From a virus: a DNA stretch of 64,000 bases. The stretch spans positions 6,944 through 70,943 of the IMG/VR virus record IMGVR_UViG_3300020193_000013; one strand, given 5' to 3'. Positions 9,722-64,000 of this stretch are shown here, one piece after another (position 1 is the stretch's first letter; every line of letters begins with the position of its first letter). The notes under the pieces are model-generated. The model saw only the letters and a program-made list of their open reading frames with translations, made no database searches and had not been told where the DNA came from. Made by a program: the position numbers and the translations under genes.

Positions 9722-12700
9722 CTATGCGCTACTACTAACTATCTGCCACTCAATCGTTACAGCCCAATTAAATTGAACAGATGGATGACCAATTAAAATA
9801 CCTAAAGCAGTATCTGGATTCATAACGCCAAATATAAATGATGTTGAAGCTCCATCACCGTCTTGACATATAATCGTACTAATGGGCGAACCAATAGCTG
9901 TTAAGTTACCAGCCTCACGTTTAAACATACCTTCAACTCTATATGATGCATATCCAGTGTTTGTATCTGAACGTCCTACTGCGGTCATGCATACTCTTAA
10001 CGCACTAGAAGTATTAACTGCTACATCAGAACCGGTTACAATAGCTGGTGAACTGTTAGTAGTTACTTGAACTGCAGTTTTGCTTGACCAAGCTGAACCA
10101 GTCCAGTTTGCATGAGTCTTAATAGATTCTTTAGCGGTCCATGATTCTGCTGGTTTATTAGATTCGTCACCAATTACAAAATTTTGATCCGAACTACCAA
10201 AAATACCATTTAATGGTGAAGCCCCGCTTCCGTTAATTTCTAGGTTTCCAGTTAATGAAAGTGCTGTATCAGCGCCAGTAGCTGTAATAGTTGCTGGATT
10301 AGACAACGATGTGTTAATTGTATTACCAGCATTATATGAAGACTGTAGATCAATAATCCCAGCACCACTTGAATGTACTGGTGAACCTACAGTGCTTAAA
10401 GTTCTAAATCTAATTCTGGTATTATAAGGTAAATCTCTGTCAATTCTGATTTTAGCTTTAGGTCCACCAAAAGTTTCGGTATAGTCAATGTTAGCTTCTC
10501 TGACGCTATCGTTTGCAATAACTAATAAGTCTTCGCCAGAAAGAACGTTATCGCCTTTGCTATAAGACGAATTGGTTGGCCAAGTTAAATATGTGGAACC
10601 ATTAACAATTTGAGCCCTTCTATTTGGCGGCAAAACAAGTTCAACTACATCAGAAGCTAGTACTTGAGGAGAAGTAAAATCTGGGTTACCAGCGTTATTA
10701 ATTGTACCGATAGCTACGCCAGATTGATAAACTGTCGTTCCATGGGTAAATCCACCGTTTGTGCCAGAACTATAAACATGCACTAAACCAGTGCTTGCTC
10801 CAAATACTGAGCCGCCTGGCATTGTAGTAGAAGAACCTTCTATAGTTTCGGAGCTTGACGAAGAACCATAAAGAACCCAAGCCAAGGATGTTGGGGCACT
10901 TTGGCTACCGATATATACATGTTTGCCAGACTTTAAACTTTGTCCAGGATTTAAAGTTAAAGGCATTACTTGCAAATAAACAGATTCATCGTAAACTGGT
11001 CTGGATAATTCAGTATTAACTTTGGCTAATTCCCTATCTTCTTTTCTTATTGCCAGTGTTAAATTATCAGATTCGCTTATTGCATAATTGATTCTGTAAT
11101 ATGTAATGGTTTCGCCGTTTGTTAATGCAGATACGTCTTCTTTAACTATTACAGATTTATTTGTTAATATGGATTCAATTGTATAAAAATTGCCCGAACT
11201 GTCTTCAAGCTTGTCTTCTTTTTGGAAACCTAAATCTGGGGGCGACAAGAAACTTAACTGCCTGCTATAACTATCAATTGCGCTCGAAGCTTCTAATTCT
11301 AAAGATTGGGTTTTAGACCATTGGCCATTGTTAATTTGAGTATAATTTGGGGAAGTTGCAGCTTCCGTGCCAGCACCAGTATAAATCAATAGATTGTTTG
11401 GCTGGTTATCGTTAATTGTTCGCTCTTCACCAGGTTGAAGTTCTAATGACCTAAAGTAAACTTTTGAAGCTCCACCGAAATCTCTTCTAACGGCTAACCA
11501 GTATATGTCAGCTGAAGCGTCAACTTGCCAATGTGGGTCAACATAAACTGTACTGTAATCACCTTTTGAGTATAAAAGGACTCCACTGTTAGCGGGTCTT
11601 TGAGACGTAGTGGGTGCCCCGCCGCTATCATTAACTAAATTAATGGTGTTTCCAATAACGCTAGCAATCTTCAACCAATATTGATCACTTTCATTTGCAA
11701 ACTTAACGAAATCGCCAGCTACTAATGGATTCCCGCTAGAATCAACTGGTGCAGAAGAACCGACAACAGGTCCGCCAGCAACTGAAGTAAATAACTGGCT
11801 ACTACTAACTGGCTTGTTTCTATCTAAAACTACATAAGCTGCTTCGCCATCTTCTAAATAAGCTGTACCAGAACCATAGATATCTGCCGTACCAGCGGGA
11901 TCAGCCGTAGCCGTTGAAGAAATTTTGTAATATCTATTGCCCACTATACCTTTAATATAGATATCGCTGCTCCAGCTAACTGGACCATTATATGGATTTG
12001 ATGTAGCACCTGAAGGTAAATCACCAACAGCTGAAACATTAGAATCGGTTACTACACCATCAAAAATAATAGCTCCAGTACCGTCAATTGGAGCTGGTAA
12101 AGAACTTGAACCGATTGAATAAACAAATTCTACTGGAGAATAAGCTGAAGCATTAACAGAAAAAGTGTTATAATCTTCAGGATTTGCATCTTTTACTGCT
12201 AAATCAAAGCTTGCTGCTGAAGCATAATTGTATTTATAAGGGTGTGAGCTTTGGTCTACTTCGGATGTTACATTAGCTAATGTAATTGCTCCAACAGCTA
12301 CACCATTTAAATTTTTAGTTTTAAATGTAAAGGTATTTAAAGCCGCACCTTGAACGTAAACTACTTTCTTATCTGTTCCATCAATAATACACGCAATGTC
12401 ACCATCGTTTAATCCGTGACCAGCAGAAGTAACTGTGTATTCGTCAGATCCAGGACCGGATGCTAAAGTAGCGGCTACTGTGGTCGCAGTGGAAACTGGT
12501 ATTCTTTGGTAAAGTGCGTATCTAGTACCACCGCTAGTAAAGGTAGTTAGATTAAATAAATTAGCATTATGTCTAAAGAGTCTTCTGTTATCAATTGGCT
12601 CAGGTGTTCCGTAATCAAAAGATCCGATTACATCAGTAACTAAAAGATAACTATACGTTGCGTCATTGATAACGTTGTTCAATGTAGCAGTTGCACCCGA

Positions 12701-41285: not shown

Positions 41286-42713
41286 TTAAATATCCTTAAT
41301 AAATCTATAGTGACCTGTTCCAAATATTTTATGGTAACCTTCTGATCTCATTTGATCGTCTTTTTTGCCCCAAGATGCCCTTCTTGAAAGCCTAATCTCC
41401 TTATCAGTCCAAAACATATCTGGGGGAGTAATGCCGTCCAATTTAAAGCCATTTTTGATATAAACTTGACCGTTGCTTATTCTTTTATCTGCATAGGACA
41501 TGATTGAATTATAACCTAGTTTTTTAAGTTCGACTTGAGAATGTGACATTAGTTTAGAAAACCCGCCTACAACTGATGCATTTTTAACAGTGCAAAACCT
41601 TACCAATTCAACACCATATTTTTTGTTTTTACCAAAAGTTATTAATTGAACTAATTTGCCGTCTTTTTTAAGACCGATATTTAAAAATGAGCTTCTAAAT
41701 CCCATTAAGTGATTATCGTTGCAAAAATGTTTAGTTTTTTTAAAGCTAATTTTAATTACTTCACAATCTCTTGCGTTGATTTTGTTTTCAGTTATATTAA
41801 GCTTGTTAGCTATAATTGAGCATACCAGATCAAATTTAAAATTAATTTCATCTTCAAAAAACGATATTAATTTGATTTCCTGAGATTCTGCTAATTCATG
41901 TTTTTCTTTGTTACTATATTTTTCTTTATTTAATTCGCAATGCCAATATAAACCATCTATTTCTATTCCAATATTATAGTCTGGTAGATAAATATCTATT
42001 TCTAATGGATACCCACCCTTTTTTAAAATTTTTTGATTCCTTTTAAAATTTATGTTTTTTGATTCTAAAAAATTACATACTTTTTGTTCTATTAAAGGAT
42101 TGTTTTTATGTTTTGGATGTCGAGTTTGATTAAAAATAACATTATACGGTAACGCTTCCCATTCGCCAAATTTAGGATCAATAAAAATAGCCCGTGAGTG
42201 CATTTTAATATACGTTTCTTTTTTAATTTTTATACCAGTTCCCATAGAATCCAGCCTAGACTGGATTTCATCTGGATGGATCAATTTATATTTCTTTTTT
42301 CTATCGGACAATCTTTTAGGGTGTGGGTACCTACTACTTAAAACATATTCAACTATTTTTGTAAACTCTCCGTAATCTTTATCTATAAAGGTTGCTGTTT
42401 TTTTAGTGCCTAAATACGTACTTTCAATAATTGTTACTTCTGGTGGTAATTTTTTTTTAATTTCCTCTACAGGAGTTTGCATGCCTCTATAAGATCTATT
42501 TGGATGCTTACCACCTTTTAAAAGTCTATTGGGAATTGCCCAAAAATCTCCAAAATCTTTATCAGTAAAAAGTGCTTTAAATTTCGTATTAACGTAAGTA
42601 GATTTATCTACTGAAATAATTTCAGGGTATTTTTCTTGGATTTTTTGAAGAGTTTTTTCAGATGTCCAAGTTTTTTTCTGAGATATTAAAATTGATTTTT
42701 TACTTTTTTCCAT
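41286..42713 (-). CDS. Free-standing homing-endonuclease-like protein (repeats + PD-(D/E)xK/Vsr-like + GNAT-like C-terminus)
   Basis: Three TY.....A.F.D..FG...HP repeats; LEIDIYLP...IGIEIDGLYWH; ELVRFC..VVGGFSKL..SYAD. Confidence 0.75.
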   Translation of the reverse strand: MEKSKKSILISQKKTWTSEKTLQKIQEKYPEIISVDKSTYVNTKFKALFTDKDFGDFWAIPNRLLKGGKHPNRSYRGMQTPVEEIKKKLPPEVTIIESTYLGTKKTATFIDKDYGEFTKIVEYVLSSRYPHPKRLSDRKKKYKLIHPDEIQSRLDSMGTGIKIKKETYIKMHSRAIFIDPKFGEWEALPYNVIFNQTRHPKHKNNPLIEQKVCNFLESKNINFKRNQKILKKGGYPLEIDIYLPDYNIGIEIDGLYWHCELNKEKYSNKEKHELAESQEIKLISFFEDEINFKFDLVCSIIANKLNITENKINARDCEVIKISFKKTKHFCNDNHLMGFRSSFLNIGLKKDGKLVQLITFGKNKKYGVELVRFCTVKNASVVGGFSKLMSHSQVELKKLGYNSIMSYADKRISNGQVYIKNGFKLDGITPPDMFWTDKEIRLSRRASWGKKDDQMRSEGYHKIFGTGHYRFIKDI

Positions 42714-42805: not shown

Positions 42806-45619
42806 TTATTGAGCTTGTGAAGCAGTTTGCTCAACTTGACTAATTTCGAACTGTATAGGCACAAAATAAATGAGTCCTGCTAGCTTAGCCTCTAAATATA
42901 TACTCATTACTCCGCCCTTTAATGACACTTTGGCGTTTTTATAGCCCTTTGGAGCGTCATCTGAAGGGGCAATGAACCTAAGCCTCAAGAAGTTAAACAT
43001 TTCGCTTTCTAGGAACACTAGAGCAACTTGAGCGCTGATTTCAGCTACAGATTTACCAACAATAGCCCTGTCAAAGTTTTGAATCAGTGTTAAGGCCATA
43101 ATGTCAGCAACGTATACAGCTTGTAAGCTATTATATACAAAGTTGTTATCTACAGCATAGGTTGTTTGATCCGAAACCCATCTAAATCCACCAGTTTGAA
43201 CTGGCTCAAGAATTAGCAATCCTGCAGTTAAAGCGTCTTCTAGTTTAGACGGGATCTTGGTATCGAAATCCTTTTCAGGTTTAACAATACCACTGATATT
43301 TGCAAATTTCTTAACAATACCACGGTAACCAGCAGCTGCTTGCATTCCAGCAGCAATTACTGCGGCCATCCAAGGCTGATATTGAACAATTGTGCCGCTT
43401 CCGCTTAAAGCTTTAACGTCTTGGAAAGCCATCGCAACTCTAAAACTTGATAGAGCAGCAGCAGATTGCTTTTGAGCTTCATAAGTACCGCTTCTTGAAA
43501 CAAGTGCTGAACGGTTTTTGCGAGCTTTTAAAGAACTCATGTCAATTACATGAGATTTTAAATAAGCATTTACTGCATCAACAGTATAAGTTGAACTTGA
43601 TTCTGTTTCACCAGCAAGGATATCTTCAGAAGCATCTTTACTGATAAGAGGAACCATAAAGTTCGTAATAACACCTTGGCAGGCATCAATTGCTGATACC
43701 CAATCGGCTCCAGTGCTACCACCTTTAGCTCCACCACTTAAGAATTTGGCTAGGTCCATAGCTTCTGGTAAACCAGATTGAGAACCGCTTTGTAGAGCAG
43801 ATGTAGCTAAAGAACCACCGCTTACATTTGCTTGCCATTCAACAGCATCTTTTTTTACTCTTCCTGGCTTAGAAGAAGCTCCTGAAGCACTGATTTTAAA
43901 AGTACCTCTATCAAGGCTGCTAGAAGCTACTAGGTTAAAGCTAGACAAAGAAACTGCAGATGAAAAGCTAGTTTGAGTTGCAGCAAAATCAACAACATCT
44001 TTCAATGTTGGGAATTGGCTGTAAGCGCATGAAAAAATTTCTGTTCCGTTAACTCTAAATTTAATGTCCGAAGAACCAACTATCATATCGGCTAGTTCTT
44101 GGGTGCATCCAAAGCTTGCAACTACATTACCACCAGCGCTAAATACGTCAGTTACGTTACCACGGCTGATTGTAGTAGTTACTTTGCTTTCTGCGCTAGA
44201 AACCAAAAGAGGTTTACCAGTAGCAAAAGAAGCCGCTGCACCAGTAGCTGGGTTTTTACAAATGTCAGAAGGCTCAGAAACAATTTCCATGCTCTTTCCA
44301 AGACCATCAATAGCTGGCTTTAAAACAGTAAATGGTTGAGCACCTTGAGCGATAGGTCCAGCAACCAATTGAGAGCCTGTTGCACCAGATGAACCGTTTG
44401 AAAGTCTAGCGCAAGTAAAAGAATTTGAAGTAGAAGCTGTTACTTGATATAAACCAGCGGCAACTCCAGCAAATGGAGCAGCTACTTTAACATAGTCACC
44501 AGCTTTTGGCTGAGCTGCCCACGCAGTATCTAACGACATTACGAATGTGCCATTTGAATTTGAAGTTGTGTTAAAAGTAACTGCGGAAAGACCTACACTT
44601 GATTGTCTGTCCATTCCAGAGATATTTTTAATTTCAACTTGAGTATAACAAAGTACATCTTCATCAGAACCAATTGGGGTAGATAGAACAGCTGCAACAG
44701 ATGGAGCACCTGATGGAGCGTTTAATCTTTTAGCTGTAATGATAGCAGTTGTAGTTCCGTTAACTACGTCAGTTACAATATAAGCACCACGGTTTGCATC
44801 TGCAGCTCCGATAATAGCCGAATCAGCTAGAGCAGCGAAGTCACCAGTTTTGGGAATAGTTAAAGTATCCCCAACAGAAGGTAGATTTGCTGAAGCAATA
44901 GACCCTGGCATGCTGATAGCAATTAAGCTAGCGCCAGCATCAACTACTGCAACCGAAATATTTCCTACAGCAGATGTTAAAGGTTTTTTAAGAGTTCCGC
45001 CAGAGGCTAGAGTTCCTAAAGAAATACTTTCCATTGTAGCCGCAAAAGTAGGTCCATCAGTTAAGCTACTGATAGAATTTGAATCGACTGCAGAACCATT
45101 TTGTCTTAGGTTAAAAGACACAGCTGAAACTGCGTAATGAGGCATATAAGTAAATTTGCCAGTTGTAGGAGGCAATTCTGCAGCAGCAGTATCTACTTTG
45201 TATTTAATTAAATTACCGGGGGCACCAGCTCTTCTAGCAGTTAGGGTAGCATAGCTGCCAAATCCAGCTCTAGCTAAAATATCTGCAGCAGTAGAAGAAG
45301 CATTAACTTTCACAATTTTCACACCTGAAACTGAACCCACAATAGCGGGATCATTTGCAGCTGCTACGATAGCCCTAAAAGCATCTACTAACCGTCCAGA
45401 TCCGTATTTAACTAATACAGAGGCGATGTCATCTGGAGCAAAAAGATTAGAGTTTAAATCTGATTCTTGAGTGTGGTCTGGTCCTTCGTTAGCTTCACCA
45501 ATTAAAGTAACAACACCAGCAGCAGCAATTCCGCCTTGATTAGCACGGACTTGTTGTTCTACATAAGTACCTGGAATCTTTAAAGTTATCCCACTGTTTG
45601 TAGTATATGATTGAGCCAT
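42806..45619 (-). CDS. Tail sheath protein
   Basis: KIPGTY and IGEA.EG at N-terminus; sheath-like C-terminal domain; 937 aa. Confidence 0.9.
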   Translation of the reverse strand: MAQSYTTNSGITLKIPGTYVEQQVRANQGGIAAAGVVTLIGEANEGPDHTQESDLNSNLFAPDDIASVLVKYGSGRLVDAFRAIVAAANDPAIVGSVSGVKIVKVNASSTAADILARAGFGSYATLTARRAGAPGNLIKYKVDTAAAELPPTTGKFTYMPHYAVSAVSFNLRQNGSAVDSNSISSLTDGPTFAATMESISLGTLASGGTLKKPLTSAVGNISVAVVDAGASLIAISMPGSIASANLPSVGDTLTIPKTGDFAALADSAIIGAADANRGAYIVTDVVNGTTTAIITAKRLNAPSGAPSVAAVLSTPIGSDEDVLCYTQVEIKNISGMDRQSSVGLSAVTFNTTSNSNGTFVMSLDTAWAAQPKAGDYVKVAAPFAGVAAGLYQVTASTSNSFTCARLSNGSSGATGSQLVAGPIAQGAQPFTVLKPAIDGLGKSMEIVSEPSDICKNPATGAAASFATGKPLLVSSAESKVTTTISRGNVTDVFSAGGNVVASFGCTQELADMIVGSSDIKFRVNGTEIFSCAYSQFPTLKDVVDFAATQTSFSSAVSLSSFNLVASSSLDRGTFKISASGASSKPGRVKKDAVEWQANVSGGSLATSALQSGSQSGLPEAMDLAKFLSGGAKGGSTGADWVSAIDACQGVITNFMVPLISKDASEDILAGETESSSTYTVDAVNAYLKSHVIDMSSLKARKNRSALVSRSGTYEAQKQSAAALSSFRVAMAFQDVKALSGSGTIVQYQPWMAAVIAAGMQAAAGYRGIVKKFANISGIVKPEKDFDTKIPSKLEDALTAGLLILEPVQTGGFRWVSDQTTYAVDNNFVYNSLQAVYVADIMALTLIQNFDRAIVGKSVAEISAQVALVFLESEMFNFLRLRFIAPSDDAPKGYKNAKVSLKGGVMSIYLEAKLAGLIYFVPIQFEISQVEQTASQAQ

Positions 45620-49762: not shown

Positions 49763-50695
49763 TTACTCAGGCTTTTTAGTTAAAAGACCTTCTTTTTGGT
49801 ATTTTTCTTGCGGCGTTTCAGGCTTTTCATCATGTTGGGATATGATAGATTCAATCTCAGGGGTCCATTCATTTACTTGGTTTTTACCTTTTAATTTGCC
49901 GTATATCATTGCGTGAGCAGCTTCTGAAATACTTCTACCTACCCCAACAGTAATGGTGTAACCTGTAGCTTCATGATATTTATTTCTTAAATCTTCTATT
50001 TCATTTAGATATTTTTTATGTAGGGTAAAAGAAATGTCATCGCCGCCATCAATATAAATTGAGCCATGATGTTTTTTAATCCATTTTCTTATTACTTGGT
50101 TGCCTCTTTTAATGATTTTATCTTGTTTTTTGATTTCTTTAATATCGTTTGATAATGCCACACGTTCAACTGAAGCACCAATATTATCACCATCAGTAGC
50201 TATATAAACTATATTTTTTTGAGCTTTGGATAAAAGTTTAAAAAGATCTTCAAAACCTTTAGTTAATACATCTAACTCTGATTTACCGAAATCAAAATTA
50301 TGAGTAAAATAAAAATCTTTTCCTGTTTGATCTTTAAGATGGGTATAAAAATCCTGGGGTTTGGCTTCATGAAATACTGTACCTTCACCACTAACCGATG
50401 TACCAGCTTTTGGACCATTTAAGTATAGCATTTTATGATTTTTGCCATTTGAATAAATTACCGATTCTTGACCTGTATCTCTAGCCAGTTTTATTATATC
50501 ATTTACATTTTTTGGGTTTGAAACGATAATAGAAGATTCTGGGCTACCGTAATGCCCTTTAGAATTAATTGCAGTTTCGCCTTGAGTTTTTAACCAATTT
50601 AAAGTATTTTCATGGGTTGGTGGCGGTTTAATCCCCTGATGCATGGGGTTTTCTACTGAAAAAATCAAATGTGGTTGTTGAATTAAATCTTTCAT
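49763..50695 (-). CDS. SAM-lyase-like domain fused to mCpol (minimal Cas10-palm nucleotidyltransferase)
   Basis: SVENP...GHYG.PESSIIV...LARDTGQESVIY; YIATDGDNIG...GGDD...VGVG.SISEA..A...K..GKN. Confidence 0.75.
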   Translation of the reverse strand: MKDLIQQPHLIFSVENPMHQGIKPPPTHENTLNWLKTQGETAINSKGHYGSPESSIIVSNPKNVNDIIKLARDTGQESVIYSNGKNHKMLYLNGPKAGTSVSGEGTVFHEAKPQDFYTHLKDQTGKDFYFTHNFDFGKSELDVLTKGFEDLFKLLSKAQKNIVYIATDGDNIGASVERVALSNDIKEIKKQDKIIKRGNQVIRKWIKKHHGSIYIDGGDDISFTLHKKYLNEIEDLRNKYHEATGYTITVGVGRSISEAAHAMIYGKLKGKNQVNEWTPEIESIISQHDEKPETPQEKYQKEGLLTKKPE

Positions 50696-53475
50696 GACAG
50701 TTTTATTTCTTCATGTATTTGTTTTGGATGAAATATCATGGCTGTGTTTTGAATAACTGGATGCGCACTTGGATCTTTTGTAACCACACCATGATATCCA
50801 GCATTTTTAACTTTATTGAAAATCTTTTCAAAATTCCAAGCCATGTTATTTTCTTTAAGGGCTTGTAGCAGAAGTCCGTCTTTATCGCTGTAAAGATCGT
50901 ACAATTTTTGATGTGGCTCTAATTTAACTGTATATTTTGATTTAGCACCTGATCTAACTATGTCTTCTGGGGTATCATTAATATAATAAAAGGTTACATG
51001 TGGGTAATTTTTTATTTGGTGCGGTAAAAACCTTTTAGTATGATCACCCTTAACGCCCATGCCTTCTTTTCTGGGATCTAGTTCTTTTAATCCTGGATGC
51101 TTTGAGTAATGATATAAAATAGCTGGCTGTTCTTCAGTTTTGCTTAAATCGTCCATGAATTTAATTTCAGTATCTCCATCATGCCCATGAACTTCATTAA
51201 CATCTTTTAATGAATTATAAAAATTAAACGATGGAGTATCTGTCATCCAATTAACTAAGCATTTACCATCAGGGAACTGGACGCCTACAGCTACAATTCC
51301 TGTACCATTGTTCCCCTCATGATCTTCTTTCCTGTTTAAATAAAACCGTTTAAACTTTTTAAGTTTTGGCTTTCTAGCCTTAAAAAGTATGTCTATATTT
51401 ACTTCTGACTTTTTGGCCATGAGCCTATTTAAATCTTCTTCGGTAATTTTTTTAGCTTTTCTGGTCAATTGTTTCCAAGAGGCTTTTAATCTATTGTAAT
51501 CTATTGGCTGCCAATTTGCAGGATTTTCTTTTTTTAAAGCATTGTGCTCTTGTCTTTGTATTTTATTCGTCAGTAAATCTCTTGTATGCGTTAAAATTTC
51601 TTCATTGATTTCATTTTCAGGTAAATCTTTATATGAAGGTTTTGATCTAACAAATTTTTCAATAGCTTCTCTTTCATTAGGATGCAGATGTACATTTAAT
51701 AAATGATCTACCAATCTATTTTTAGTATCTTCGCCGTATTTAGCTCGTAAAATATTTAATAAATGATGGGCAGCTTCATGCTCTTGAACAACATGAGCTT
51801 TGCCTGCTTTAAAGGCTTCTGGTTTTATGTACGGTTGACTAAAATCATCCTTATAGGCTTCAGTATAACCTCGGGTTATAAAAGTTCCTTCTGGGGTAAC
51901 CTTAATATCAGACTGACCGCTAACCGCTGATTCAGCGGCTTTTCTTTGTGATTCTCTATGTTTTGGAGTAGCTTCTTTAGCCCGAGGTTGTGCCATTAAA
52001 ATCTTATTGGCTGTTTTTTTATTTTCTAGCGTTTGTCTAGAAATGATTCTAGGTCCGCCTGCCATGGCTTCAATTGCTTTATCTTCTTCAGTTATAGAAG
52101 GTACTTCGAGAGGTTCGTCAGAAATAAACTTAACGTCCTGCTCTGGTCTAGTAGGTAGCTTTTTAAGCCCTTTAAATCTTAAAGCTGGTTGAGACATTTT
52201 AATTAACTCTTCTTTAGCTAAACTTACGATTTCATTAACGTATTTATATATTTCTTTTGATAATCCAGTATTACTATGATTGTTTTGAATTTCAATAGTT
52301 TGCGGTAATACTAAATCACCAAACTCTATTTTAAAGTCTGCCTTAGCTACTTGCAAATTATTTTTATCTTTAACTTCAACTTTAATTAAATTATCTATAA
52401 CATTGTGGAAAAATTGATAAATTTCTATGTTTTTAAATTCTGATTTGTTAGTTTCATTTAAATTGCTTGGATCGTAACCAAATTCATGAATAGAATTGGA
52501 ATCGGTATACACATGCTTAGCTGGAACTACTTTGCTTACTATTTTGTACTTGTTACCAAGATTAGCCTGACCATGCTCTTTTGCATACTTTCTATTTAAA
52601 GTAACCCAATCACCAGGATTGATATTAAGTTTTTTTGCCGGTTGATCTGGTAATGTTTTTAATTTTTCATACTCATCGCTTATTTGATTGTAATAGTTAG
52701 ATCTATCACTGGCATTAACGCCTTTAGGTATTTTTCCAGTTTTTAAAATATAAGCTTTATGGCTCTCTATTTCAGCCATTCTCTCTTTAGGTAATTGCTT
52801 ATGCGGAACAGCTCTATAAATTCTGACCATTTTATTCGGTTTATCTTTAACGCCATGCAAATGATTAATAGATTCTTGATCGTATGGTACACCATGACCG
52901 TAGTATTTAGCAGCGTTTGAGCCGTAAATATCATCTGGATATATATCTTTTAAATTATGAATAGGTTTTGAAAAGCCGTCATTTTTTGGAGCTTCGTGTT
53001 CACCTTTGTAGTCTTCTTCAGCTTTTTTGATTTCGGGTTTTTTAAGTTCACCTTTTAAATAAGTGACTACTATGTTTTCACCGTTAGGCTGGTATAGGTC
53101 GTCGTGCTCTAATGGATTAATAAATTTTAACTCTTTAAATTCTTCATCTTTGTCGCCAGTAAAATCCATACTCTCGTGATGGTATGGTTTTTTACAAACA
53201 AACAAATGAACAGTTAAATTTTTATCTTCTTGAGTATTGTAATGCTCTGCTCCGATATGCTCTAAATCATTTAGGTTTAATTCTAATCCAGTTTCTTCTT
53301 TAGTTTCTCTAACTGCAGCATCTTTTAAAGATTCTTCATTATGTACGTGTCCACCTGGAATGCTCCATTCATTAGTGTCTTTTCTTTTGCCGTGTAAAAT
53401 AAGATCTGGAAATTCGCTATGTCTAATGACAACGGCAGAAGCTACTGGTGGTTTTTTGTCTTTTGGATCACCCAT
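50692..53475 (-). CDS. Polyvalent protein: NUDIX, ART-like, GNAT-like, HExxH metallopeptidase, unknown domain, second ART-like
   Basis: Nudix box GGHVHNEESLKDAAVRETKEETGL; IYRAVP..INPGDWVT..EFGY; HEAAH; LYHYS..GYHGV; likely start MGDPK at 53475. Confidence 0.75.
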   Translation of the reverse strand: MGDPKDKKPPVASAVVIRHSEFPDLILHGKRKDTNEWSIPGGHVHNEESLKDAAVRETKEETGLELNLNDLEHIGAEHYNTQEDKNLTVHLFVCKKPYHHESMDFTGDKDEEFKELKFINPLEHDDLYQPNGENIVVTYLKGELKKPEIKKAEEDYKGEHEAPKNDGFSKPIHNLKDIYPDDIYGSNAAKYYGHGVPYDQESINHLHGVKDKPNKMVRIYRAVPHKQLPKERMAEIESHKAYILKTGKIPKGVNASDRSNYYNQISDEYEKLKTLPDQPAKKLNINPGDWVTLNRKYAKEHGQANLGNKYKIVSKVVPAKHVYTDSNSIHEFGYDPSNLNETNKSEFKNIEIYQFFHNVIDNLIKVEVKDKNNLQVAKADFKIEFGDLVLPQTIEIQNNHSNTGLSKEIYKYVNEIVSLAKEELIKMSQPALRFKGLKKLPTRPEQDVKFISDEPLEVPSITEEDKAIEAMAGGPRIISRQTLENKKTANKILMAQPRAKEATPKHRESQRKAAESAVSGQSDIKVTPEGTFITRGYTEAYKDDFSQPYIKPEAFKAGKAHVVQEHEAAHHLLNILRAKYGEDTKNRLVDHLLNVHLHPNEREAIEKFVRSKPSYKDLPENEINEEILTHTRDLLTNKIQRQEHNALKKENPANWQPIDYNRLKASWKQLTRKAKKITEEDLNRLMAKKSEVNIDILFKARKPKLKKFKRFYLNRKEDHEGNNGTGIVAVGVQFPDGKCLVNWMTDTPSFNFYNSLKDVNEVHGHDGDTEIKFMDDLSKTEEQPAILYHYSKHPGLKELDPRKEGMGVKGDHTKRFLPHQIKNYPHVTFYYINDTPEDIVRSGAKSKYTVKLEPHQKLYDLYSDKDGLLLQALKENNMAWNFEKIFNKVKNAGYHGVVTKDPSAHPVIQNTAMIFHPKQIHEEIKLS

Positions 53476-53489
53476 TTTAATACCAATTA

Positions 53490-54452
53490 TTACTCGTCGT
53501 CTTCCATTTCCCAAGTTGGTGAATAATCTTTGGGGTTTGCTCCTGGTGGTGTTTTAGGGCCATCTGCAATTCTAATAACGCCACGCACATCTTGGAGTTT
53601 TGGTGCGGCATATTTAATAAAGTTAATCTCTACTTGACCTGATAAAACTATATTTCTACTAAAAATGCGGTCAGTCTCTTTAAAATTTGGATTTAAATAC
53701 ATTGCATCTGATTGCATAGTACTTAATTCAAACCCTCTGCCTTCAAAGTAAACTTCTTTACATCTTAGTAGAATGTACCATATTGTATCATGAAGCCATT
53801 GATTTTGCACTGGATCTGATTGCGTGTGTACACCTATATAAACAGTTTCACTTACAAAGGTTACTTCTCTTTGCAAATTCCATACTGACACTGGTGGAAC
53901 AACATAAGCATCGGTAAAATCTTCATTTACATTTTCTTTGATTCTAAATTGAGTATTTCCAACAATTTCGAGTATTTGATAAGCTTTACCAGTCCTAGAA
54001 GATACTAAAAATTGACCTACTACAGCATATTCTGTAGTAATTCCGCTAGGAAAGGTCACTATACCGTTTTCTTTATTGTATTCTGAAGGGGTGAAGTTTT
54101 CGTAAACTTTAATAGGATTTATTGAAACTTTTTCAGTACTTATGTCTTCTGGTCCGCCCAATGTATCGCCTAAAGCAGTTCTAGGCAATAATTCTACCCT
54201 TGGTGAGCTTGTTATGGTAATACAAGGCATTTCGGGTGAATCTATCCTAAAATCTAAGTAAACTGGAATTTTATTGGTTAAAAACCATTGTTTATAGGCG
54301 TGTATCTCTTTATAACCGTATTCGGTTTTAGAAAGTGTGTCTGTAGCTAGTCCAGCTATCACGTCATCTAGGATGAAATTATTCTTTCTGAGGTCATTTA
54401 AACCAGCTTCAAGGGCTGTTTTGACTAATATATCTGTAGGTATAATGGCCAT
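53490..54452 (-). CDS. Tail terminator/neck-type protein
   Basis: P.ITI motif; size and position upstream of sheath. Confidence 0.55.
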   Translation of the reverse strand: MAIIPTDILVKTALEAGLNDLRKNNFILDDVIAGLATDTLSKTEYGYKEIHAYKQWFLTNKIPVYLDFRIDSPEMPCITITSSPRVELLPRTALGDTLGGPEDISTEKVSINPIKVYENFTPSEYNKENGIVTFPSGITTEYAVVGQFLVSSRTGKAYQILEIVGNTQFRIKENVNEDFTDAYVVPPVSVWNLQREVTFVSETVYIGVHTQSDPVQNQWLHDTIWYILLRCKEVYFEGRGFELSTMQSDAMYLNPNFKETDRIFSRNIVLSGQVEINFIKYAAPKLQDVRGVIRIADGPKTPPGANPKDYSPTWEMEDDE

Positions 54453-57942: not shown

Positions 57943-57971
57943 GATGTCCTCTATTATAATATAGATTAAGT

Positions 57972-58897: not shown

Positions 58898-61150
58898 TTA
58901 CCTTTTAAGTTTATCAAAATATTCTTTAACTCTAAGTTCTCTAGCTTTAAGATTATTATCGCTTTCTAGCTTTAATTTTTCTAGCTTTAATTTGTTTATT
59001 ATTTCTTCTGCTAATTCTGGATTTAGTTCCTGTAATTTTTTAATAGCTTGTTTTTTGATTTTTGGATCAACTTTGGGGTTTCCTGCGAGGTTGCGCTGCA
59101 CAAATTCGTTTGGGCTTTGCGCTAATTTGGTTTGCAGCTCTGGGTGGAGGTTGGGGTTTTCTGCGAGGTAGCGTTGCACGTATTCGTCTTGGCTTTGCGC
59201 TAATTTGGTTTGCGCTTCTGGGTGGAGGTTGGGGTTTAGTGCGAGGTAGCGTTGCACGTATTCGTTTTGGCTTTGCGCTAATTTGGTTTGCAGCTCTGGG
59301 TGGAGGTTGGGGTTTAGTGCGAGGTAGCGTTGCACGTATTCGTTTGGGCTTTGCGCTAATTTGGTTTGCAGCTCTGGGGGGAGGTTGGGGTTTAGTGCGA
59401 GGTAGCGTTGCACGTATTCGTCTTGGCTTTGCGCTAATTTGGTTTGCGCTTCTGGGTGGAGGTTGGGGTTTTCTGCGAGGTCGCATTGCACGTCTACGTA
59501 TTGGCTTTGCGCTAGTTTGGTTTGCGCTTCTGGGTGGAGGTTGGGGTTTTTTGCGAGGCCTTGTTGCACGAATTTGTTTTGGCTTTGCGCTAGTTTGGTT
59601 TGCAGCTCTGGGAGGAGGTTGGGGTTTTTTGCGAGGCCGCGTTGCACGAATTCGTCTTGGCTTTGCGCTAATTTGGTTTGCGCTTCTGGGTGGAGGTTGG
59701 GGTTTAGTGCGAGGCCTTGTTGCACGAATTTGTTTTGGCTTTGCGCTAGTTTGGTTTGCAGCTCTGGGTGGAGGTTGGGGTTTTCTGCGAGGTTGCGCTG
59801 CACGAGTTCGTTTTGGCTTTGCGCTAGTTTGGTTTGCGCTTCTGGGTGGAGGTTGGGGTTTCCTGCGAGGTTTAAATGATTTTTAGGATTTTTAGATAAC
59901 TCAATATGTTTTTCTGGACTTATTCTGCTGGAGTAAGCTCCAAGTTCAGGTCTTTTTGCTAATAAAGCATCGTGTTCTTCGTGCGATAAATCATCTAAGT
60001 TAAAATTGTTACCTGGCAAATAACCGCCCCCATGAGGTAAAAAATTAGAATTTGAAAAAAGCTGCGAAATATACTTATGGTATTTTTGTTGCGGTATTAA
60101 ATTAGCTCTCCCCTTCATTTCTCCTATAGTTTTTCCATCTGGCTCTAAAATAAAAGTAGCTGCTGGTTCATGATATATTTTATCACCTATTTTAATTTCT
60201 CTTCTTAAAGAAAGTATATTTTGCCCCTTTTTTGGGTTACCTTTATTTCCGCAATGACCCATAGCAGAACCTTCATTATTGCAAGTAGCTCTGCTTAATT
60301 TATACCAGGAATATCCATCGCCTACATCCATTAATTTAGTAGTTTTTTTATCTGGGGCTACTAGTTGCGGATTATTTAAAGCTTTGGCGTTATACTGGTC
60401 TTCTGCACCTTTAAACGCTTGTAATCCTTCTTTAACATTATGTTTATCGAATCTAAGATTTGCTATATTTGGAATATGCTTAGAACTAGCATAATGCTCA
60501 ATAGCTTTAATTGCTTTATCATTAAACTGTTTAGGATTTGATATATGATTTTTAACAGCCCATTGCTGCCAGTTACCATTAGGTAGTTTTTGCGTAGCCC
60601 AATTAACGAAATCTTCTTGATGCGGTTGTATATTGGTGCCGTACATTGCTTTAAGTTCTTTTGCGCCTTTTTGAAGTGATTCAAAATCAAAATCTTTTGC
60701 AAAAACAGGCTCTTTGCTTAAATCTGGCTTTCTAATTAATGAATTAGGTTTAATTTCTTTATTCTTATGTAATTCTAATAAATCTTCTGCTTTTGTGATA
60801 ATAATGCTATCTTCATCAAAATCATAAACTAAATAACAATCTATTTCACTTTTAGTTAAAGCTGACGGTGCAAACATTTTTTGTTTTAAGTTTTTACTTA
60901 ATTCTGCTTCTTTTGATTTAACTAGTTCATCTAGTTCTTCTCGCCATTTTAAATTTTTACCTTTCTTTTCAGCTAAAAACAAAGTAATGGCTTTATGAGG
61001 TGAGGCTGCCAGGGTTTCTATTTCGCCTTTATCATTTTGAGCAAAACAAGCGTAAAGACCTCCGTGAGTCTCTACAAGAAGAATTGGCGCACCTTTTCCT
61101 GTGGTACCCACGAACTTCTTCTTTTTAATCATTTCTTTACTAATCTTCAT
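58898..61150 (-). CDS. PcfJ-like domain + 10 x 26-aa helical repeats + cap
   Basis: EG.AMGHC...ILSLR...P..T...EMKG.AN.P motif; LAxNPNLHPE repeats. Confidence 0.8.
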   Translation of the reverse strand: MKISKEMIKKKKFVGTTGKGAPILLVETHGGLYACFAQNDKGEIETLAASPHKAITLFLAEKKGKNLKWREELDELVKSKEAELSKNLKQKMFAPSALTKSEIDCYLVYDFDEDSIIITKAEDLLELHKNKEIKPNSLIRKPDLSKEPVFAKDFDFESLQKGAKELKAMYGTNIQPHQEDFVNWATQKLPNGNWQQWAVKNHISNPKQFNDKAIKAIEHYASSKHIPNIANLRFDKHNVKEGLQAFKGAEDQYNAKALNNPQLVAPDKKTTKLMDVGDGYSWYKLSRATCNNEGSAMGHCGNKGNPKKGQNILSLRREIKIGDKIYHEPAATFILEPDGKTIGEMKGRANLIPQQKYHKYISQLFSNSNFLPHGGGYLPGNNFNLDDLSHEEHDALLAKRPELGAYSSRISPEKHIELSKNPKNHLNLAGNPNLHPEAQTKLAQSQNELVQRNLAENPNLHPELQTKLAQSQNKFVQQGLALNPNLHPEAQTKLAQSQDEFVQRGLAKNPNLLPELQTKLAQSQNKFVQQGLAKNPNLHPEAQTKLAQSQYVDVQCDLAENPNLHPEAQTKLAQSQDEYVQRYLALNPNLPPELQTKLAQSPNEYVQRYLALNPNLHPELQTKLAQSQNEYVQRYLALNPNLHPEAQTKLAQSQDEYVQRYLAENPNLHPELQTKLAQSPNEFVQRNLAGNPKVDPKIKKQAIKKLQELNPELAEEIINKLKLEKLKLESDNNLKARELRVKEYFDKLKR
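59090..59869 (-). repeat. 78-bp coding tandem repeat, 10 units
   Basis: Core CTCGCAnnAAACCCCAACCTCCACCCAGA recurs every 78 bp. Confidence 0.97.
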
Positions 61151-61152
61151 GT

Positions 61153-64000
61153 TTATGCTTTTTCTTTAAATCTATCAAAATATTCTTTAACTCTAAGTTC
61201 TCTAGCTTTAAGATTATTATCGCTTTCTAGCTTTATTTTTTCTAGCTTTAATTTGTTTATTGTTTCTTCTGCTAATTCTGGATTTAGTTCCTGTAATTTT
61301 TTAATAGCTTGTTTTTTGATTTTTGGATCAACTTTGGGGTTTAGTGCGAGGCCGCGCTGCACGTATTTGTTTTGGCTTTGCGCTAATTTGGTTTGCAGCT
61401 CTGGGAGGAGGTTGGGGTTTCGTGCGAGGCTGTGCTGCACAAATTCGTTTGGGCTTTGCGCTAATTTGGTTTGCAGCTCTGGGTGGAGGTTGGGGTTTTC
61501 TGCGAGGTCGTGTTGCACTTCTGAGTATTGGCTTTGCGCTAGTTTGGTTTGCAGCTCTGGGTGGAGGTTGGGGTTTCCTGCGAGGCCGCGCTGCACGTAT
61601 TCGTATTGGCTTTGCGCTAGTTTGGTTTGCGCTTCTGGGTGGAGGTTGGGGTTTTCTGCGAGGTAGCGTTGCACGTATTCGTCTTGGCTTTGCGCTAATT
61701 TGGTTTGCGCTTCTGGGTGGAGGTTGGGGTTTAGTGCGAGGCTGCGCTGCACGTCTTTGTCTTGGCTTTGCGCTAGTTTGGTTTGCAGCTCTGGGAGGAG
61801 GTTGGGGTTTTTTGCGAGGCTGCGCTGCACGAGTTCGCTTTGGCTTTGCGCTAATTTGGTTTGCAGCTCTGGGTGGAGGTTGGGGTTTCCTGCGAGGCTG
61901 TAATGCACGTATTCGTCTTGGCTTTGCGCTAGTTTGGTTTGCAGCTCTGGGTGGAGGTTGGGGTTTTCTGCGAGGTAGCGTTGCACGTATTTGTTTTGGC
62001 TTTGCGCTAATTTGGTTTGCAGCTCTGGGTGGAGGTTGGGGTTTAGTGCGAGGCTGCGCTGCACGTCTACGTATTGGCTTTGCGCTAGTTTGGTTTGCAG
62101 CTCTGGGTGGAGGTTGGGGTTTCCTGCGAGGTAGCGTTGCACGAGTTCGTCGTGGCTTTGCGCTAATTTGGTTTGCGCTTCTGGGTGGAGGTTGGGGTTT
62201 AGTGCGAGGCCGCGCTGCACGTCTTCATTTTGGCTTTGCGCTAATTTGGCTTGCGCTTCTGGGTGGAGGTTGGGGTTTAGTGCGAGGTTTAAATGATTTT
62301 TAGGATTTTTAGATAACTCAATATGTTTTTCTGGACTTATTCTGCTGGAGTAAACTCTAAGTTCAGGTCTTTTTGCTAATAAAGCATCGTGTTCTTCGTG
62401 CGATAAATCATCTAAGTTAAAATTGTTACCTGGCAAATATTCATCTCCTTTTGGCGGAGTTATTTTAGTCCTGGCAAAAAGTTCAGAAACATACTTATGG
62501 TATTTTTGTTGCGGTATTAAATTGGCTCTACCCTTCATTTGGCCCAAACTACCATCTGGACTTAAAGATGCTGTTACGGCAGGTTCATGATACTCCTTAC
62601 CGCCAGCTTTTATAACCCTTCTTAATGATAACAATTTTTGATTTTCTTTGGCTGCGGTGCCACAGTGCCCCATGGCTTTACTTTCTTTATCGCATTTATA
62701 AGTATTTAAGTTAAACCAAGCATATCCATCACCTACATCCATTAATTTAGTAGTTTTTTTATCTGGTACTATTAACTGGGGATTGCTCAAAGCTTTTGCA
62801 TTATATTTGTTTTCTGCATCTTTAAACGCTTGTAATCCTTGTTTAATATTATGCTCTAAAAACTTAACGCTTTTGACATCTGGTATATGTTGACCAGCTT
62901 GACCATAATGTTCAATAGCTTGCATGGTTTCTTTATTAAACTGATCTGGATTTTTTGCGTGATTCTTAACTGCCCATTTTTGCCAATTATTGTTACCAGG
63001 TAGTTTTTGCGTAGCCCAATTAACGAAATCTTCTTGATGCGGTTGTATATTGGTGCCGTACATTGCTTTAAGTTCTTTTGCGCCTTTTTCTAAAGATTCA
63101 TGTTTACCAAAAGATCTGTTAAATCTATCAAAATATTCTTTAACTCTAAGTTCTCTAGCTTTAAGATTATTATCGCTTTCTAGCTTTAATTTTTCTAGCT
63201 TTAATTTGTTTATTGTTTCTTCTGCTAATTCTGGATTTAGTTCCTGTAATTTTTTAATAGCTTGTTTTTTGATTTTTGGATCAACTTTGGGGTTTTCTGC
63301 GAGGTAGTGTTGCACGTATTCGTCTTGGCTTTGCGCTAATTTGGCTTGCGCTTCTGGGTGGAGGTTGGGGTTTAGTGCGAGGTAGCGTTGCACAAATTCG
63401 TTTGGGCTTTGCGCTAATTTGGTTTGCAGCTCTGGGAGGAGGTTGGGGTTTTTTGCGAGGTAGTATTGCACTTCTGAGTCATGGCTTTGCGCTAGTTTGG
63501 TTTGCAGCTCTGGGAGGAGGTTGGGGTTTTTTGCGAGGTAGTATTGCACTTCTGAGTCATGGCTTTGCGCTAGTTTGGTTTGCGCTTCTGGGTGGAGGTT
63601 GGGGTTTCCTGCGAGGCCGCGCTGCACGTATTCGTTTTGGCTTTGCGCTAGTTTGGTTTGCGCTTCTGGGTGGAGGTTGGGGTTTCCTGCGAGGTAGTGT
63701 TGCACGAATTCGTCTTGGCTTTGCGCTAATTTGGTTTGCGCTTCTGGGTGGAGGTTGGGGTTTCCTGCGAGGTAGTGTTGCACGAATTCGTCTTGGCTTT
63801 GCGCTAATTTGGTTTGCGCTTCTGGGTGGAGGTTGGGGTTTTTTGCGAGGCTGCGCTGCACAAATTCGTTTGGGCTTTGCGCTAATTTGGTTTGCGCTTC
63901 TGGGTGGAGGTTGGGGTTTCCTGCGAGGCCGCGCTGCACGTATTCGTTTTGGCTTTGCGCTAGTTTGGTTTGCGCTTCTGGGTGGAGGTTGGGGTTTCCT
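61153..64000 (-). CDS. Tandem repeat-array/PcfJ-like polyprotein, N-terminus beyond window
   Basis: Frame open to window edge; about 9 repeats, cap, PcfJ-like domain, 12 repeats, cap. Confidence 0.8.
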   Translation of the reverse strand, partial: GNPNLHPEAQTKLAQSQNEYVQRGLAGNPNLHPEAQTKLAQSPNEFVQRSLAKNPNLHPEAQTKLAQSQDEFVQHYLAGNPNLHPEAQTKLAQSQDEFVQHYLAGNPNLHPEAQTKLAQSQNEYVQRGLAGNPNLHPEAQTKLAQSHDSEVQYYLAKNPNLLPELQTKLAQSHDSEVQYYLAKNPNLLPELQTKLAQSPNEFVQRYLALNPNLHPEAQAKLAQSQDEYVQHYLAENPKVDPKIKKQAIKKLQELNPELAEETINKLKLEKLKLESDNNLKARELRVKEYFDRFNRSFGKHESLEKGAKELKAMYGTNIQPHQEDFVNWATQKLPGNNNWQKWAVKNHAKNPDQFNKETMQAIEHYGQAGQHIPDVKSVKFLEHNIKQGLQAFKDAENKYNAKALSNPQLIVPDKKTTKLMDVGDGYAWFNLNTYKCDKESKAMGHCGTAAKENQKLLSLRRVIKAGGKEYHEPAVTASLSPDGSLGQMKGRANLIPQQKYHKYVSELFARTKITPPKGDEYLPGNNFNLDDLSHEEHDALLAKRPELRVYSSRISPEKHIELSKNPKNHLNLALNPNLHPEAQAKLAQSQNEDVQRGLALNPNLHPEAQTKLAQSHDELVQRYLAGNPNLHPELQTKLAQSQYVDVQRSLALNPNLHPELQTKLAQSQNKYVQRYLAENPNLHPELQTKLAQSQDEYVHYSLAGNPNLHPELQTKLAQSQSELVQRSLAKNPNLLPELQTKLAQSQDKDVQRSLALNPNLHPEAQTKLAQSQDEYVQRYLAENPNLHPEAQTKLAQSQYEYVQRGLAGNPNLHPELQTKLAQSQYSEVQHDLAENPNLHPELQTKLAQSPNEFVQHSLARNPNLLPELQTKLAQSQNKYVQRGLALNPKVDPKIKKQAIKKLQELNPELAEETINKLKLEKIKLESDNNLKARELRVKEYFDRFKEKA
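61351..62286 (-). repeat. 78-bp coding tandem repeat, 12 units
   Basis: Same unit; 936 bp. Confidence 0.97.
63304..64000 (-). repeat. 78-bp coding tandem repeat, 8 full units plus a ninth cut by the window edge
   Basis: Same unit, continues off window. Confidence 0.97.

Follow-up and report, generated by a model that had tools for sequence, protein, structure and literature searches.

Tandem phage genes joining PcfJ-like cores to LRV repeat arrays with a near-invariant framework and one variable helix face: candidate effectors with a probable fast-evolving protein-binding surface

At the right-hand end of the 70,943-bp IMG/VR virus record IMGVR_UViG_3300020193_000013 (judged linear and 44% complete by CheckV) lies a group of tandem paralogous phage genes, whose products join a PcfJ-like core to an array of nearly identical 26-residue repeats of the LRV family. 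They were studied in the right-hand 64 kb of that record, hereafter the window (i.e., the whole stretch of 64,000 nt). The repeat units keep an almost unchanged framework, down to synonymous sites, and vary at a small set of positions, most of which are predicted to lie on one face of one helix. We hold it moderately probable that these modules are effectors, in which the LRV solenoid would target the PcfJ-like core by means of a fast-evolving protein-binding surface. Within this reading, the anatomy and the family assignments are much firmer than the function.

The minus strand holds two open frames here according to the list of open reading frames (ORFs), i.e., gene A (58898-61150) and a frame of 948 codons (61153-63999), and the contig stops inside the third array, the last base of the window being also the last base of the contig. 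The AlphaFold2 model of gene A has a mean predicted local distance difference test score (pLDDT) of 86.2, based on an alignment of 38 sequences. A degenerate cap unit (LAxNPKVDP) directly follows each array. The features of the locus are the following:

58898 to 61150, minus strand: gene A, 750 aa, made of an N-terminal extension (residues 1-155), a PcfJ-like core (156-427), a 10-unit LRV array (428-687), and a cap with a helical tail (688-750).
58898 to 59089, minus strand: cap unit (LAGNPKVDP...), Lys/Glu-rich helical tail and stop codon of gene A, with helices predicted at residues 696-709 and 711-749.
59073 to 59871: array A as delimited by Tandem Repeats Finder, 10.2 copies, 90% matches, score 1161.
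59090 to 59869, minus strand: array A, 10 units of 78 bp (26 aa), from repeat finding and register; pLDDT about 94-98.
59870 to 60685, minus strand: putative PcfJ-like core of gene A, residues 156-427, from relatives, invariant columns and an AlphaFold2 model (pLDDT 90.9).
60686 to 61150, minus strand: N-terminal extension of gene A, residues 1-155, pLDDT 27-71 per 10-residue block, conserved in the orthologue P0002.
61153 to 63999, minus strand: open frame of 948 codons, without internal stop and still open at the contig end, comprising array C, cap, tail, linker, core B, array B, cap and tail.
61153 to 61350, minus strand: cap unit, tail and stop codon of module B.
61334 to 62287: array B as delimited by Tandem Repeats Finder, 12.2 copies, score 1347.
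61351 to 62286, minus strand: array B, 12 units, whose order is identical in P0003, a protein from a different contig.
62287 to 63120, minus strand: linker of module B (NRSFGKHESLEKG) and putative PcfJ-like core, identical to residues 182-459 of P0003.
63119 to 63122, minus strand: TTAA at the join of the C tail and module B, the sole letters common to the two forms known for this place and the point where the alternative form branches off.
63121 to 63303, minus strand: cap unit and tail of module C.
63287 to 64000: array C as delimited by Tandem Repeats Finder, 9.2 copies, score 1025.
63304 to 64000, minus strand: array C, 8 whole units and one cut by the contig end.

The three arrays detected by Tandem Repeats Finder share a period of 78 bp with 87-90% matches and, once placed in register, comprise 10, 12 and 8 whole units plus the one cut by the contig end, 31 altogether. 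This bears out what an earlier note, made from the letters and their ORFs, had described as about 31 units in three arrays (10, 12 and at least 9) with an almost invariant scaffold. At the DNA level all 30 whole units agree in 13 of the 26 codons, the residue is invariant at 15 of the 26 positions, and 24 of the 78 nucleotide columns vary, in spite of which 29 of the 30 units are distinct (A9 equals B8). Change is concentrated at residues 3, 8, 11, 19-22, 25 and 26. Five residues occur at position 3 (L/G/E/K/R), three at position 8 (H/L/P) and two at position 11 (A/L), together with 16 different tetrapeptides at positions 19-22 and 11 dipeptides at 25-26, while change is rare at position 13 (2/30 units) and at position 24 (1/30, an H). 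Purely synonymous dimorphisms exist at codons 10, 15 and 24, and they are linked to the adjoining variable codons, for example codon 24 to 25-26 (p = 0.0005) and codon 15 to 19-22 (p = 0.006). The note had also remarked that the variation falls mostly on codon positions 1-2, which is literally true (18 of the 24 varying columns) but amounts to about the 2/3 expected if the columns were spread evenly; the real signal is their clustering plus an excess of nonsynonymous (dN) over synonymous (dS) change, rather than a codon-position bias.

That excess was evaluated with Nei-Gojobori counts over all unit pairs, following the per-codon comparison that the note had proposed, and a selection-like pattern was found. 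The nine variable codons give a proportion of nonsynonymous differences (pN) of 0.357 and of synonymous differences (pS) of 0.071, hence a dN/dS of 6.5, and the remaining 17 codons give a pN of 0.005, a pS of 0.127 and a dN/dS of 0.04. Over the whole unit, which is free of any choice of codons, dN/dS is 1.21. Across the arrays, on the opposite strand, there are plus-strand ORFs with GGGWGF-type repeats (59062-59886, 61323-62303 and 63276-63998), which are most likely by-products of the repeats and not genes.

By the curated cut-offs of Pfam the arrays belong to the LRV family, since both LRV_2 (PF25591; E-values of 3.8e-21 and 9.3e-37, 75.3 and 125.3 bits, cut-off 27) and LRV (PF01816; 6.2e-15 and 5e-22, 54.9 and 77.1 bits, cut-off 21.6) are matched above them. 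AlphaFold2 models the array with a pLDDT of 94-98 as a confident two-helix solenoid, with two 8-residue helices per unit: according to DSSP limits, helix A runs from unit position 9 to 16, and helix B from 21 to 26 and on through positions 1-2 of the following unit. When the model was searched with Foldseek, the HEAT repeats of PP2A-A (E 1.8e-06) and armadillo solenoids were matched, as well as 1lrv, the first LRV structure (E 2.5e-04, target TM-score 0.62, root-mean-square deviation (rmsd) of 4.5 over 222 columns). The proposal of an LRV- or HEAT-like solenoid, advanced from the repeat pattern, is thus corroborated by family, model and fold comparison alike.

Where do the variable residues lie on such a solenoid? 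Exposure was deduced from the helix limits (AlphaFold2 and DSSP) and from helical periodicity. Positions 21, 22, 25, 26 and 29 (the latter being position 3 of the next unit) follow the i, i+1, i+4, i+5, i+8 pattern expected for one side of helix B, the opposite side of which (V23, Q24, L1 and A2) is unchanged apart from the single H at 24, and positions 19-20 form the loop leading into that helix. The variable residues would therefore cluster on one helix face and its flanking loops, as the note had supposed. On helix A, E10, T13 and K14, together with Q17 just after it, all expected to be exposed, have an entropy of 0-0.35 bit here versus 0.68-0.97 bit in 16 ordinary related arrays, and at positions 3, 20, 22 and 26 the variability equals or exceeds that of those 16. 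Frozen helix-A positions next to diverse helix-B positions mean that these arrays are not merely relaxed at every surface position. The frozen helix-A side, together with the frozen basic tail, suggests a constant partner or role, for instance in assembly or packaging. As to the tail itself, a two-copy complex prediction of gene A residues 662-750 scored 0.00 against a mark of 0.32, which gives no verdict on oligomerisation either way.

The same restriction of variability appears beyond this locus. In eight related arrays of other proteins, some of them multidomain proteins of 1000-2000 aa, positions 3, 22 and 25 are strongly variable in 8/8, position 21 in 7/8, and positions 11, 20 and 26 in 5/8. 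A search for related loci returned three distant loci with the core only and one related phage, complete, of 144 kb and with terminal repeats. The latter encodes an orthologue of gene A with 11 units, whose framework is fixed within its own array but differs from that of the window (NxNL for NPNL, VL for VQ, and other synonymous codons), and whose variation falls at positions 3, 5, 11, 13, 19, 21, 22 and 25. It has a single PcfJ-like/LRV gene versus the three modules found here, with a free-standing GNAT gene ahead of it and, after it, the gene of the same virion protein (306 aa) as lies next to gene A. The corresponding feature line, for this phage (L010), is:

10001-10537 and 10684-12885 of L010: 178-aa GNAT gene and PcfJ-like/LRV gene, respectively.

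The array of the 144-kb phage, clearly homologous as it is, has no LRV_2 match at E<=0.001. Downstream of the core in two of the core-only relatives (L007, 6920-7796, and L008, 6941-7807) lie genes for pairs of small proteins, about 140 aa long and Thr/Ser-rich, with a W/R-rich motif at their end.

How the framework is kept so uniform can be read from the comparison of the modules. Cores A and B, with 73% protein identity, a dS of 0.62 overall (0.91 in the middle) and a dN of 0.18, are by their divergence old paralogues, while cap and tail show a dS of 0 between the paralogues, the tail DNA of gene A being 96-98% identical to those of B and C. The array framework has a dS of 0.14, which comes from the three dimorphic silent sites. 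Units differ by 9.6 nt within an array and by 9.8 nt between arrays, and the nearest neighbour of a unit is often found in another array. Strain differences fall on the same variable sites: in run X5, a contig tied to unique flanking sequence has G in place of N at position 26 of unit A10 and L in place of G at position 3 of the cap, and two short unitigs, which possibly come from other units, change position 26 of A5 from D to Y and that of C8 from Y to D. Other differences in public runs convert the B tail and the end of core B to the A version. All this is suggestive of units and paralogues that are nearly identical and often exchange sequence, in agreement with the rapid re-assortment that the note had proposed. 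The scaffold DNA pattern was found in 0 stretches of viral_contigs and 0 of metagenome_contigs, searches from which the own genome or very near records were possibly excluded.

Since repeats of this kind are prone to trouble in assembly, it has to be considered whether a short-read assembly scrambled or invented the order of the units, with the fusion of modules C and B as a false join. The contig does end inside array C, the Logan contigs fall into pieces inside the arrays (of the 89 in run X1, 52 fit two places), and those of X1, X2 and X4 continue differently at 63122, their loose ends running, as read by eye, into the end of the GNAT domain of P0003. Module B thus has two upstream partners in the population, the C tail in frame (window) and a GNAT domain (P0003 and these three runs). 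Due to the fragmentation, unit order cannot be verified from the Logan contigs, and the array C bins left uncovered in X2 and X4 carry no weight. Yet no 127-mer is repeated in the region, the longest exact repeat being of 115 nt, so that a graph of this genome alone at k=127, if the assembler used one, would have one path. P0003 has the same array B and core, without a difference over 655 residues, the exact protein of gene A (P0001) is on record from two contigs, and most contigs are at least 99% identical to the window in four runs (85/89, 61/64, 20/22 and 49/57). The join itself is in frame and shares with the GNAT form just the TTAA, four letters being too few for a de Bruijn false join; a deletion at this 4-nt microhomology, or a real alternative order of modules, fits better. 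An artefact of assembly is, all in all, very improbable. Just ahead of the module boundaries, short motifs of the form KSE(E)L.KG or ESL(E/Q)KG were noticed by eye (in the linkers before the cores, about 60670-60690 and 63085-63120, and in the homologues P0003, P0004, P0007, P0015 and P0032).

What, then, would these arrays recognise? The earlier note had likened them to transcription activator-like (TAL) effectors, a reading by which each unit would read one base of DNA or RNA and the whole array would spell the target. Near-identical modular units, localised variation and variable array lengths are common to both, the Asn, Gln, Lys and Arg side chains of the framework could touch nucleic acid, and core and tail are basic (isoelectric point (pI) of 9.3-9.7). 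Against such a code, the helix-B codes are distinct in 27 of the 30 units, with 7-9 variable residues per unit and hence no small alphabet; the arrays are slightly acidic (pI 5.9-6.3, net charge of -4 to -7); and the variable sites are rich in Tyr (the commonest residue, 31/210), followed by Glu, Gln, Arg and Asp. The unit has 26 residues, no TAL-effector family is matched in Pfam at E<=1, and the structural neighbours listed by Foldseek are LRV and protein-binding HEAT and armadillo repeats, with no TALE, PUF or PPR structure among them. Tyr-rich surfaces are typical of protein binders, and the distinct codes, the Tyr-rich sites and the acidic arrays fit a long protein-binding surface instead of a code of one unit per base. 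The analogy with TAL effectors is not supported in this respect, and a reader of nucleic acid is quite unlikely; the alternative that the same note had offered, i.e., the binding of variable host proteins, is the best candidate reading.

A variation so localised might also be written by a programmed mutagenesis, such as that of a diversity-generating retroelement (DGR), and PcfJ-like domains have been found upstream of the variable regions of DGRs in some genes of the candidate phyla radiation (CPR), according to the available parts of a DGR survey (PMC5758913). Nonetheless, no reverse transcriptase (PF00078) was found either in the 70.9-kb record, which, being 44% complete, leaves its absence from the phage unproven, or in the complete 144-kb relative, whose array is of the same type. 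All four bases occur in the variable columns, which show neither an adenine-specific pattern nor a template copy, and the LRV matches of the whole record are confined to the three arrays, with no silent cassettes elsewhere. It is extremely unlikely that the variable codons have been written in this way.

The core that the arrays are attached to is widespread. Its relatives amount to 1806 cluster representatives at E<=1e-3 (122 at E<=1e-30), and among the 150 relatives listed its position varies within proteins of 298-3104 aa. Relatives carry GNAT, NUDIX, PBECR5, mCpol, DUF6321, AAA or dynamin-like domains beside the core or the LRV array; LRV matches occur in 8 of the 30 members of the core alignment A2, and ten representatives of about 600 aa contain no Pfam domain. 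The invariant columns of the core include W282, H299-C300-G301, S314, R316, G347, N350 and P353, which suggest that it may be an enzyme. Pfam PcfJ is matched by 1 of the 30 members of A2 (E 0.0074), and the comparison of A2 by hhalign with P0012, which has Pfam PcfJ at residues 160-220, aligns the HCG...LSLR...KGxN...YH block with a probability of 99.3, a value inflated by the LRV repeats that both share. The core-only model (pLDDT 90.9) finds in BFVD phage proteins named PcfJ-like from E 5.8e-07. By profile and by fold, the core thus resembles proteins that bear PcfJ and is here considered PcfJ-like. Many acetyltransferases appear among the 50 VIA matches listed, a consistent, weak signal of a GNAT/MYST-like fold. 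Against the Protein Data Bank (PDB), a search by sequence profile was of no help (its top match, an ATP synthase delta subunit, had an E of 0.58) and Foldseek gave no match at E<=0.001. For the N-terminal extension of gene A, Pfam gave no match at E<=10.

The window comes from a myovirus and includes its tail sheath and baseplate genes, and the genes under study lie in the virion block: gaps of 2-5 nt separate module B, gene A and the gene after them, all on one strand, and this last gene encodes a protein of 306 aa that matches phrog_1004, a virion structural protein. The products of the modules are probably late proteins, which are perhaps packaged and delivered along with the DNA, as the position of the genes leads us to infer. 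Between 57500 and 64000, the predicted promoters and terminators are within the shuffled expectation (15 vs 11.0 +/- 4.1 and 9 vs 11.8 +/- 3.4, respectively). The same location makes it conceivable that the arrays bind the phage's own parts (the capsid interior, scaffold or cargo) as spacers or adaptors, their variation being of little consequence. The neighbouring virion structural gene agrees with this, and so does the constant partner suggested by the frozen exposed side of helix A and the frozen tail. A fixed phage partner, however, would not favour 27 different codes, and neither the dN far above dS at one face, nor the variation of the same positions in all eight related arrays, nor the strain differences at positions 3 and 26 are what a spacer would call for. 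The binding of own components is, on balance, improbable, albeit the most plausible of these alternatives, and the arrays are better read as probable binders of host proteins.

The multidomain company of the core brings to mind the polyvalent proteins of phages and conjugative elements (Iyer, Burroughs, Anand, de Souza, Aravind 2017, PMC5512222). For phage multidomain proteins encoded among virion genes, the parts of that work available to us give the prediction that they are likely packaged and injected. There are several likenesses: the core occurs in multidomain phage proteins with NUDIX, GNAT, PBECR5 and mCpol; the genes lie among virion genes, near one for a NUDIX/ParB multidomain protein; and modules are joined in varying order (C tail or GNAT before module B). 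Several unrelated effector domains in variable combinations are indeed found in this family, as judged from domain matches. On the other hand, when the text of PMC5512222 was searched for LRV, HEAT, PcfJ and leucine-rich, none of these terms turned up. The NUDIX/ParB protein (940 aa, 50692-53514, minus strand) has NUDIX and ParB C-terminal matches and a match over the NUDIX part to a PHROG annotated as portal; to judge by these matches, it is of the typical polyvalent type, and it belongs to the same gene block as the arrays.

Some further observations concern the rest of the window. A gene of 475 aa resembling HNH/homing endonucleases (41286-42713, minus strand; phrog_3339, 5.6e-69, and phrog_559, 2.6e-68) adjoins the tail sheath gene (42806-45619). 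The motif AGATTAAG has 10 plus-strand copies window-wide versus 4.2 expected (2 of 100 shuffles reach 10), the nearest of them at 57963-57970 and none between 57971 and 64000. With regard to the source, at least one third of the sampled words is present in 15 of the 20 listed runs, each of these being a lake-water metagenome, and one of them may be the sample of origin.

LRV repeats, repeat-protein binders and polyvalent phage proteins are already known, whereas for hypervariable LRV arrays on a phage PcfJ-like core no describing paper was found. With the LRV protein of Azotobacter vinelandii (1lrv) the arrays have in common their family membership and the right-handed solenoid of two helices. 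They differ from known LRV arrays in that the units are 79% identical to one another (median of 61% in the 16 related arrays), and from LRV proteins in that the variation is confined to one helix face and the array is fused to a PcfJ-like core in a phage. To our knowledge, no function has been established for LRV proteins, and therefore membership of this family says nothing about function. Closer to the proposed role are the artificial alphaRep proteins and the natural HEAT-like repeats that served as their model, as well as designed ankyrin and armadillo binders, which likewise combine a constant helical framework with a variable second helix (here positions 21, 22, 25, 26 and 29). AlphaRep binders randomise positions 18, 19, 22, 23, 26 and 30, which form the concave face in contact with the target (PMC3754942), and this choice is matched by the pattern of variable positions seen here. 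They are man-made, with units of 31 residues and a demonstrated binding, while the present arrays are a natural diversity of 26-residue units and predicted binders.

TAL effectors, PUF and PPR proteins are similar in their near-identical tandem units, kept alike by recombination, with set variable positions and varying length and order. In the TAL effectors of Xanthomonas, nonetheless, there are 33-35 residues and 2 variable positions per unit, compared with the 26 residues and 7-9 variable positions of these acidic arrays, which match neither their family nor their fold. The DGR targets of the CPR (Wu et al. 2018, PMC5758913) resemble the modules in having, in some of the genes described in the available text, a PcfJ-like motif followed by a hypervariable C-terminal part. 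There, a reverse transcriptase writes another kind of domain, whereas here repeat units recombine and no reverse transcriptase was found, so that the combination of such a core with a hypervariable C-terminal part would arise by a second route. As for the core, the best match in BFVD is gp31 of Salicola phage SCTP-2 (MF360958.1; E 7.2e-16), a protein annotated as hypothetical and without LRV array, which in a sequence search has 36% identity over 76% of the query. This phage is also the sole deposited record, out of 50,697, with the core at E<=1e-5, and a tblastn search of the same 50,697 phage records with array A returned nothing. In the literature no paper was found on LRV arrays in phages, although supplements may hold more, and PcfJ-like was mentioned only in the DGR survey.

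Taken together, the mechanism that we favour would work as follows. Each module would consist of a conserved PcfJ-like core, then the LRV alpha-solenoid, its cap and a basic helical tail, with the solenoid as the targeting part of an effector. Exchange by recombination and gene conversion, from one 78-bp unit to another and from one paralogue to another, would keep the framework nearly identical, while the exposed residues of helix B (21, 22, 25, 26 and position 3 of the next unit) and of the preceding loop (19 and 20) would be kept diverse. Each array would in this way gain a long and unique surface, rich in Tyr, Arg, Asp and Glu, most likely for proteins and probably for host proteins; the products of these virion-block genes would probably be late and might reach the host from the virion, together with the DNA. 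The anatomy, the membership of the families, the selection-like pattern, the concerted evolution and the strain differences at the variable sites are observed; that the arrays bind, what they bind and that the products are packaged is inferred.

Several points weigh against this mechanism. The dN/dS compares unit with unit in the presence of gene conversion, which makes it an unclean rate, descriptive more than a clean test, and the nine codons were picked after seeing the data, though the whole unit still exceeds one. The same positions are also the most variable in ordinary LRV arrays, and part of the pattern is therefore simply one of surface positions. Position 11 falls on the buried side of helix A, and its choice between A and L is probably a matter of packing. 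Both the exposure of the variable face and its concave or convex side were deduced from helix limits and periodicity. The core of the window has no Pfam PcfJ (PF14284) match at E<=10, and its acetyltransferase fold match is weak (best VIA Z of 6.8, with HAT1, rmsd 4.0 and 140 aligned residues, where a Z below 8 possibly reflects a common arrangement; Foldseek E 0.028). The contig ends in array C and the C-B join of the window is bridged by none of the Logan contigs listed, the GNAT form being present in three runs.

If the variation were neutral, or if the arrays bound phage parts, this would be one more LRV protein. If the arrays do bind as proposed, they would represent a natural system of repeat-protein diversity in viruses, with a framework held constant by concerted evolution and one face diversified. 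In its widest form, which we put forward tentatively and as rather less probable than the targeting role itself, large phages would maintain a natural, recombination-driven library of binders, whose LRV cassettes are shuffled within and between tandem paralogues and steer a virion-delivered PcfJ-like effector onto changing host targets (e.g., defence proteins) with no need of a reverse transcriptase. Every lineage, or even every strain, would then have long recognition surfaces of its own. Such a library would be the phage counterpart of the variable lymphocyte receptors or of man-made repeat-protein libraries, and cores of this kind would have, apart from DGRs, a second way to become hypervariable in their targeting. 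It would also provide protein engineering with a short and apparently very stable 26-residue scaffold with natural variable positions, and it would offer a handle on a very widespread and uncharacterised phage domain and on what injected or late phage proteins attack in the host.

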